From Escherichia coli (GTDB lineage Bacteria; Pseudomonadota; Gammaproteobacteria; Enterobacterales; Enterobacteriaceae), in NCBI RefSeq assembly GCF_011045215.1, contig NZ_CP049201.1: a stretch of 64,000 nucleotides of DNA. One strand, given 5' to 3'. Below the pieces are notes generated by a model, which searched no databases, was not told where the DNA came from, and was given only the letters and a program-made list of their open reading frames with translations. Shown here piece by piece: positions 17,329-17,537 of this stretch. Within the stretch, counting starts at the first letter, position 1, and every line of letters begins with the position of its first letter. The translations under genes were made by a program, and so were the position numbers.

Positions 17329-17337
17329 TTTCCCCGT

Positions 17338-17372
17338 AAAGCGGCAACTTTATTGAGTTGCCGCTTTTTTAT
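17338..17372 (+). terminator. Rho-independent terminator after pflA (approximate)
   Basis: AAAGCGGCAACT-ttattg-AGTTGCCGCTTTTTTATT. Confidence 0.65.
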
Positions 17373-17537
17373 TCCGCGCTGCATAAATAATTCAGAGCTC
17401 TATTTCTAACGCCCTTACAGCACAGCTTCCAAATGTATTACCCAAACCGCCAGTATATGTCCTGCGGCTTGCGCGCATTTCTCGATTATGTAAAAACGGG
17501 TCAGATCTGCCAGAGTCAGCGTCACCGACCACAATAA

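Follow-up and report, generated by a model that had tools for sequence, protein, structure and literature searches.

The pflA-ycaM spacer of an Escherichia coli genome as the probable scar of an old deletion of ycaK and most of ycaN

Segments of the K-12 chromosome that are absent from O157:H7 are reportedly known as K-islands, a term said to go back to the comparison of the EDL933 and K-12 genomes by Perna et al. in 2001. The locus described here is like them in that a K-12 backbone segment (1,515 bp, ycaK and most of ycaN) is missing in O157:H7-type genomes between collinear conserved flanks of 98.3-98.7% identity, and unlike them in that the segment is not specific to K-12, being found in 62% of complete genomes, and in that the DNA analysed is not itself O157:H7. 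A literature search for b0900/b0901 together with K-islands, with the numbered island table itself lying outside the search, gave nothing relevant, and no paper discussing a ycaK-ycaN deletion was found in the literature searched. The PGAP annotation of RefSeq genomes already has a 111-bp pseudo-CDS at exactly the place of the gene remnant described below in O157:H7 PV15-279, O102:H6, KFu014, 118UI and 23CRST013. It is labelled 'LysR family transcriptional regulator' or 'hypothetical protein', 'incomplete; missing N-terminus', and the annotation omits the identity of the remnant as ycaN, the concomitant loss of ycaK and how widely the junction is shared. From a functional perspective, ycaN and ycaK of K-12 form a divergent module of a LysR-type regulator and an oxidoreductase, and the same pair is found in Limnobaculum, Rahnella, Cedecea, Serratia, Symbiopectobacterium and others; by contrast, the DNA studied here keeps only a 36-codon tail, so that no part of the module can work. 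Finally, the absence of ycaM, ycaN and ycaK in CFT073-type genomes (phylogroup B2) likewise concerns the pflA-ycaD interval and its hot spot, but there ycaM is gone too, no remnant of ycaN is left and a separate event, seen in 1,047 genomes, is involved.

K-12 MG1655 carries ycaN (b0900) and ycaK (b0901) between ycaM and pflA, whose stop codons lie 1,680 bp apart. The two genes are divergent and about 100 bp apart, and ycaN and ycaM are convergent with abutting stop codons. YcaN contains the domains PF00126 and PF03466 and YcaK the domain PF02525 (Flavodoxin_2). Their G+C content (42.8% for ycaK and 46.6% for ycaN) compares with 50.3% for pflA and 52.0% for ycaD. Deletion of ycaN in K-12 has been reported to alter the expression of ycaC, ycaD and focA and to cause a formate phenotype (PMC9068703).

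The window, that is the whole stretch of 64,000 nucleotides of E. coli DNA that was analysed (contig NZ_CP049201.1), has an orientation opposite to that of the K-12 map. Its plus strand carries, in order, ycaO, focA, pflB (14114-16396) and pflA (16588-17328), and its minus strand ycaM (17538-18968), ycaD (19178-20326), then ycaC and dmsCBA. An earlier reading of this DNA, made from the letters alone and hereafter called the sequence-only reading, had noticed that ycaN and ycaK appear to be absent between pflA and ycaM. Tblastn searches with K-12 proteins placed PflA, YcaM, YcaD and YcaC at the positions given by that reading, and confirmed the absence: no YcaK homologue was matched at E<=1e-3 within the 64-kb window, and the only YcaN match covers residues 267-302 (35/36 amino acids, 97% identity, E=2e-19). 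The gene order that it gave for K-12 was also right, since MG1655 carries b0900 and b0901 at this place, and a direct adjacency of pflA and ycaM in K-12 is ruled out. The spacer (17329-17537) measures 209 bp, from the end of the pflA stop codon at 17328 to the ycaM stop codon at 17538-17540 on the minus strand, in agreement with the size of about 210 bp estimated earlier. Its description as non-coding DNA must be amended, as the last 113 bp are the 3' fragment of ycaN. The features of the interval are listed below; the form of the locus found here is called the short haplotype.

16588-17328, plus strand: pflA, pyruvate formate-lyase activating enzyme; intact, 246 codons and stop, 100% identical to K-12 PflA (tblastn; RefSeq annotation of identical DNA)
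17338-17372, plus strand: intrinsic terminator of pflA; G+C-rich stem of 12-13 bp, loop of 4-6 nt, T-run (terminator scan)
17381-17424, no strand: filler of 44 bp, present in the short haplotype only (alignment to K-12 and breakpoint script)
17425-17537, plus strand: 3' fragment of ycaN, a pseudogene stub; codons 267-302 at 17427-17534, stop codon at 17535-17537 abutting the ycaM stop codon
17492-17532, minus strand: candidate ycaM terminator within the ycaN stub; hairpin 17532-17498, U-run 17496-17492 (predicted from the minus-strand RNA fold)
17538-18968, minus strand: ycaM, APC-family permease; intact, 476 codons and stop, 99.8% identical to K-12 YcaM (tblastn)

On the pflA side, alignment and the breakpoint script extend the homology with K-12 past the terminator hairpin to 17380. 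The inverted repeat 17338-17349/17356-17367, which is the stem of this terminator, is identical in K-12 and common to all three haplotypes described below. The homology is then interrupted by the filler, 44 bp without a K-12 counterpart that stand in the place of 1,515 bp in K-12, as the alignment with the K-12 interval suggested by the sequence-only reading made clear. Compared with K-12, the window thus lacks ycaK entirely, the promoter region between the two divergent genes and the first 266 codons of ycaN. Over 17425-17537 it again follows the 3' end of K-12 ycaN (110/113 nt identical), and the translation of this stub, FQMYYPNRQYMSCGLRAFLDYVKTGQICQSQRHRPQ*, corresponds to YcaN residues 267-302 with one substitution. 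The stub holds the C-terminal motif YYPNRQYM..LRAF.DY.K, conserved in the YcaN homologues of seven other genera, and this family motif shows that it derives from a true gene and did not arise as an open frame by accident. It is a pseudogene fragment, not a gene, since codons 1-266 are absent (the N-terminal helix-turn-helix is missing and the substrate-binding domain is not intact) and the frame upstream of 17427 contains stops. As a consequence of the deletion, the window would be naturally null for both ycaN and ycaK, with intact pflA and ycaM on either side.

At both borders homology falls sharply from 98-100% to none. No bases are shared at the K-12 breakpoints, and the longest word that their surroundings (+-60 nt) have in common measures 6 nt, a length that shuffled sequences reach as well; the short direct repeats that the sequence-only reading had thought worth looking for at the junction are thus lacking. 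No IS element, terminal inverted repeat or target-site duplication was found at the junction, the sole inverted repeat being the pflA terminator, and an Rfam scan of 17000-18000 returned no matches. Neither local nor global alignment relates the filler significantly to the segment specific to K-12 or to the ends of that segment (p=0.19-0.85). An inverted match of 10 nt to ycaK is no more than chance would give (p=0.22), and the filler is found nowhere else in 5,426 complete E. coli genomes, nor in any fetched locus. It shows a marginal match (13/15, p=0.03) to the Salmonella spacer just after the pflA terminator of that genus; if this match is real, the filler would be ancestral spacer DNA, and both modern forms would derive from an ancestor with the filler plus intact genes that lies outside the sample. 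Simple deletion of K-12 sequence cannot yield the filler, which therefore calls for one more event at least, or for an ancestral form outside the sample. All the differences between the stub and the K-12 ycaN 3' end (3/113 nt, 2.7%) fall within 17 nt of the junction, at 17425-17441 (Fisher p=0.003). Two of the bases in this tract, A at 17432 and G at 17435, are common to all five aligned E. coli genomes with the short haplotype (the window and four others) and absent in four genomes with the long haplotype (K-12, TUM12368, N32 and MOD1-EC4550) and in E. fergusonii.

The position of the stub offers a possible reason for its survival. Since ycaN and ycaM converge with abutting stop codons, any ycaM terminator must sit inside ycaN. 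On the minus strand, the predicted fold of the stub has a hairpin (17532-17498) with UUUUU after it (17496-17492), and these elements most likely constitute a putative ycaM terminator. The fold energy of the hairpin is no better than that of shuffled sequences (z -0.15), and the simple terminator scan did not flag it. In E. fergusonii the stem is kept (one G-U changed to A-U) and the loop has about 8 substitutions; 11 of the 14 stub differences between the window and this species lie within the last 38 bp (Fisher p=0.0003), a clustering that arises because the stem is kept while the loop varies. Salmonella has its own hairpin and T-run after ycaM. The last part of ycaN has probably been retained because this candidate terminator is embedded in its convergent 3' end.

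The distribution of the locus was established in 5,426 complete E. coli genomes, where three haplotypes were counted:

Long form, ycaK-ycaN segment present: 3,343 genomes, 62%
Short form, with the junction of the window: 1,023 genomes, 19%
Form with pflA directly adjoining ycaD, without ycaM (e.g., BH100, CFT073): 1,047 genomes, 19%

The three classes barely overlap and add up to 5,413 of the 5,426, with about a dozen genomes showing rarer forms; this sum leaves no room for many genomes with both the short junction and a second ycaK-ycaN copy. Carriers of the short form include O157:H7, O55:H7 and O102:H6. Junction, filler and stub are the same in five E. coli lineages that match the window at 96.6-98.8% identity in the flanking genes, and the short-form spacers have at most 3 differences in 209 bp (>=98% identical). 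Of the two explanations put forward by the sequence-only reading, a strain-specific deletion therefore holds for its second word only: the in-frame ycaN 3' stub beside ycaM speaks for a deletion, but its occurrence in about 19% of complete E. coli genomes, in several lineages and in E. fergusonii shows that it is not specific to one strain. Between long and short forms the flanks are 98.3-98.8% identical, a uniform within-species divergence. Among the sampled long forms (K-12, TUM12368, N32 and Escherichia sp. MOD1-EC4550), ycaK and ycaN are at least 97.6% identical, that is, they differ by about 2.4% at most. Escherichia sp. MOD1-EC4550 carries a ycaN-ycaK segment 98.6-98.8% identical to K-12, in contrast with its ycaM, ycaC and ycaO genes, which are only 94-96% identical to those of E. 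coli, indicating that the long segment spreads by recombination.

The CFT073-type form has its left border just after the pflA terminator and contains no ycaN stub. Its lack of ycaM is a separate, derived loss, because ycaM is vertically inherited (92.6% amino acid identity in Salmonella and 94% in E. fergusonii). A foreign origin of ycaM, considered because the nearest relatives listed outside E. coli were from Paenibacillus and Clostridium with 65-70% identity, was rejected, as the YcaM orthologues of Salmonella, Citrobacter and E. fergusonii (92.6-94%) fall inside the same 90% cluster. RefSeq annotates CFT073 pflB (locus 27232-29515) as frameshifted, for which a sequencing error in an old assembly is likelier than a real pseudogene.

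Other rearrangements were observed at or near this locus. E. coli 06-00048 (locus 1-5000) carries bcsA-like cellulose synthase, GGDEF and EAL genes followed by about 1.1 kb of AT-rich unannotated DNA that abuts the ycaM stop codon; this island replaces ycaN/ycaK or the stub, and the 3' end of ycaM is only 92% identical to the window. E. coli 118UI (locus 1-1457) has a phage integrase immediately upstream of pflA, the usual place of pflB, and its pflA is called as a 265-codon frame. Independent IS insertions are found in ycaM (IS4, N32, locus 8984-10330) and in ycaK/ycaN (IS1, EC96 and EC18). PV15-279 (locus 11625-19828) contains, between yljB/cspD and clpS, an element of about 8 kb that is phage satellite-like (integrase, Icd-like, primase, small terminase and capsid genes) and to which the window has no match. 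In one genome the 61-bp junction sequence occurs a second time, on a plasmid-typed record, and a few matches of pflA, ycaM and ycaK-ycaN lie on plasmid records, which are possibly misassigned replicons.

As regards the strain itself, 16800-18100 of the window is 100% identical to O157:H7 strains, 1-20000 is 99.6% identical to the best complete genomes (the baboon isolate PapM-32-1 and many O157:H7), and 17428-40202 is 99.1-99.3% identical to O157:H7 PV15-279. An assignment to O157:H7 was rejected because of the identity of only 99.6% over the longer stretch and of an island at 40-64 kb; judged from its DNA, the strain is a relative of the O157:H7 lineage and not O157:H7 itself. The island (40200-64000), beyond the tRNA-Ser side of the clpA/infA region, includes an Ag43/Cah-type autotransporter, YeeR-like, DUF4942/DUF932 and GTPase genes and IS481/IS21 pieces. 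Among complete E. coli RefSeq genomes its coverage stays below 80%, with a maximum of 73% at 96.5% identity.

Outside Escherichia, the site has quite a different content. Salmonella has the order ycaD-ycaM-pflA with a spacer of 290 bp that shows no similarity to the stub (p=0.7), and carries sopD2 between pflA and pflB. A PTS/transketolase island is found at the pflA-ycaD site in Citrobacter rodentium and C. freundii, a small ORF in Leclercia, and in Atlantibacter ycaD adjoins pflA; neither ycaN nor ycaK is present at this site in Salmonella, Citrobacter, Leclercia or Atlantibacter. Across Enterobacteriaceae, genes have repeatedly been gained and lost in the pflA-ycaD interval, a general hot spot, as seen from sopD2 in Salmonella, the PTS/transketolase genes in Citrobacter, the bcsA/GGDEF/EAL genes in one E. 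coli and the three common E. coli forms. Outside E. coli, the best YcaN homologues among the matches listed, in species-representative genomes, are 62-74% identical and belong to Limnobaculum, Caballeronia, Rahnella, Cedecea, Serratia, 'Enterobacter' Ag1 and Symbiopectobacterium. Each has a divergent YcaK homologue as its neighbour (50-57% identity), and pflA and ycaM lie elsewhere.

The short haplotype extends to a second species. Two genomes were taken as E. fergusonii because their YcaD is identical at 381/382 positions to a protein that NCBI names E. fergusonii, and in both the order is ycaD-ycaM-(209 bp)-pflA, with this filler and this stub in the spacer. Identity between their spacers and that of the window is 89.5-90% (divergence of about 6% outside the hairpin loop), and their stub has in-frame stop codons, as expected of a pseudogene. 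The same junction is therefore shared by two species with a divergence well above the within-species diversity (about 10%, versus >=98% identity among E. coli carriers). The linked sites do not group by allele class: in the 113-bp stub, the long and short forms of E. coli group together against E. fergusonii, and only 2 fixed differences separate the E. coli allele classes, both derived in the short form. The divergence between E. coli and E. fergusonii is a mosaic, with 96-98% identity in lolA, rarA and serS, 94% in pflA, 87.5% in focA, 91-93% in the last 400 nt of ycaM, 78-87% in the rest of ycaM and 77% in ycaD. The step inside ycaM, about 400 nt from its 3' end, is sharp (third-position identity 59% vs 88%). 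E. fergusonii ycaC (81%) and ycaD (77%; window 19178-21267) are as distant from E. coli as those of Salmonella or Citrobacter, and dmsABC is lacking between serS and ycaC (loci 1-8149). In one of the two genomes pflA and pflB are 98.7-98.8% identical to the window, which points to a recent import of E. coli DNA there; in the other, pflA is 94.2% identical. For a short form shared with E. fergusonii, a K-12 3' end that is only 2.7% different requires a later homogenisation of the flanks in E. coli or an exchange between species. Vertical descent of the short form, an old interspecies exchange and a long form rebuilt on a short background are the readings to be considered, and none of them alters the content of the window.

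Taken together with the anatomy of the spacer, these data make it very probable that the 209 bp are an old deletion scar, left by a ycaN-ycaK pair that was acquired in the Escherichia lineage and later mostly deleted. Acquisition followed by partial deletion is proposed because Salmonella has no trace of ycaN, the pair is a module elsewhere and the stub has been kept. The ancestor of Escherichia, after the split from Salmonella, would have acquired the divergent genes ycaN (LysR-type) and ycaK (flavodoxin-like NAD(P)H oxidoreductase) between pflA and ycaM. We infer that ycaK, the promoter region common to both genes and codons 1-266 of ycaN were then lost in one event. What it spared would be the terminator of pflA and the 36 final codons of ycaN, now separated by the unexplained 44 bp. 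The window strain would have inherited this short haplotype, the deletion not having arisen in that strain. Such a two-step history is the most economical in view of the outgroups, the distribution of the module and the low G+C of ycaK and ycaN. Points against it are the filler, the contrast between the roughly 10% divergence of the E. fergusonii spacer and the 2.7% of the K-12 ycaN 3' end, and, for the terminator role of the stub, the unexceptional fold energy.

The main competitor, which we regard as unlikely, holds that the short form is the older one in E. coli and that the long form was rebuilt by homologous recombination from a donor with intact ycaK-ycaN, with one crossover inside the pflA terminator and another where the stub begins, in its first bases, so that an import of 1.5 kb replaced the filler. 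This would suit the abrupt loss of homology (98-100% to none) at both borders, the deeper coalescence of the short haplotype (about 10% to E. fergusonii) compared with any sampled long haplotype, the clustering of long and short E. coli stubs against E. fergusonii, and the mobility by recombination seen in MOD1-EC4550, where ycaN-ycaK is close to K-12 while ycaM, ycaC and ycaO are at 94-96%. It needs, however, a donor lineage that carries the locus intact between these neighbours, and no such lineage was identified; moreover, the flanks of long and short forms are uniform at 98.3-98.8%, without a foreign tract, and an old polymorphism with flanks homogenised by ordinary recombination gives the same pattern. 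Even on this account, the state of the window is that of a deletion scar.

An insertion in the K-12 lineage, the other explanation of the sequence-only reading, fails in the narrow sense, as the long form is present in 62% of genomes with a diversity that matches that of the flanking core genes. On a longer timescale it contains a grain of truth, given the Salmonella site without trace of ycaN or ycaK and the nature of the pair as a transferable two-gene module in other genera. A pure insertion on the K-12 side, with the short form as a pristine ancestral spacer never occupied by ycaN, might draw on the absence of the pair at this site in Salmonella, Citrobacter, Leclercia and Atlantibacter, on the short form of E. 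fergusonii and on the low G+C and mobile behaviour of the pair, but it is contradicted by 36 in-frame ycaN codons and a stop, identical to K-12 at 35/36 residues and with a conserved motif, which would not be expected by chance in an ancestral spacer, and by the dissimilarity of the Salmonella spacer to the stub (p=0.7); we consider it highly improbable. Still harder to credit is a recent deletion specific to the strain, a deletion mediated by an IS, or an assembly artefact: the bare absence of the genes and the IS1 and IS4 insertions at the locus in a few strains would be compatible with it, but the distribution refutes it, with the identical junction in E. fergusonii and in 1,023 genomes that were finished independently of one another, and the breakpoints show no IS, terminal inverted repeat, target duplication or microhomology.

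Returning to the deletion scar, a further and more tentative proposal concerns its age. The presence and absence of ycaK-ycaN may be a very old polymorphism, in which the deletion occurred before or near the divergence of E. coli and E. fergusonii, both forms were kept in E. coli, divided among its lineages, and recombination erased the linked divergence to within a few bases of the junction. If both forms have lasted in this way, the YcaN regulon (in K-12, ycaC, ycaD, focA and formate use) would be under selection that is balancing or depends on the niche, with the stub possibly kept for the ycaM terminator.

The variation described here is an ordinary case of a known kind of gene-content polymorphism, with a stub already flagged as a pseudogene in RefSeq, and the apparent age of the polymorphism is its only mildly unusual point. 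If it is as old as the comparison with E. fergusonii suggests, the locus would be a small and clean case of persistence of presence and absence in a recombining species. For the biology of E. coli, about 38% of complete genomes, including O157:H7 and the CFT073-type, are without YcaN, a regulator studied only in K-12, and the K-12 regulatory maps around focA-pfl are therefore not transferable to those lineages.
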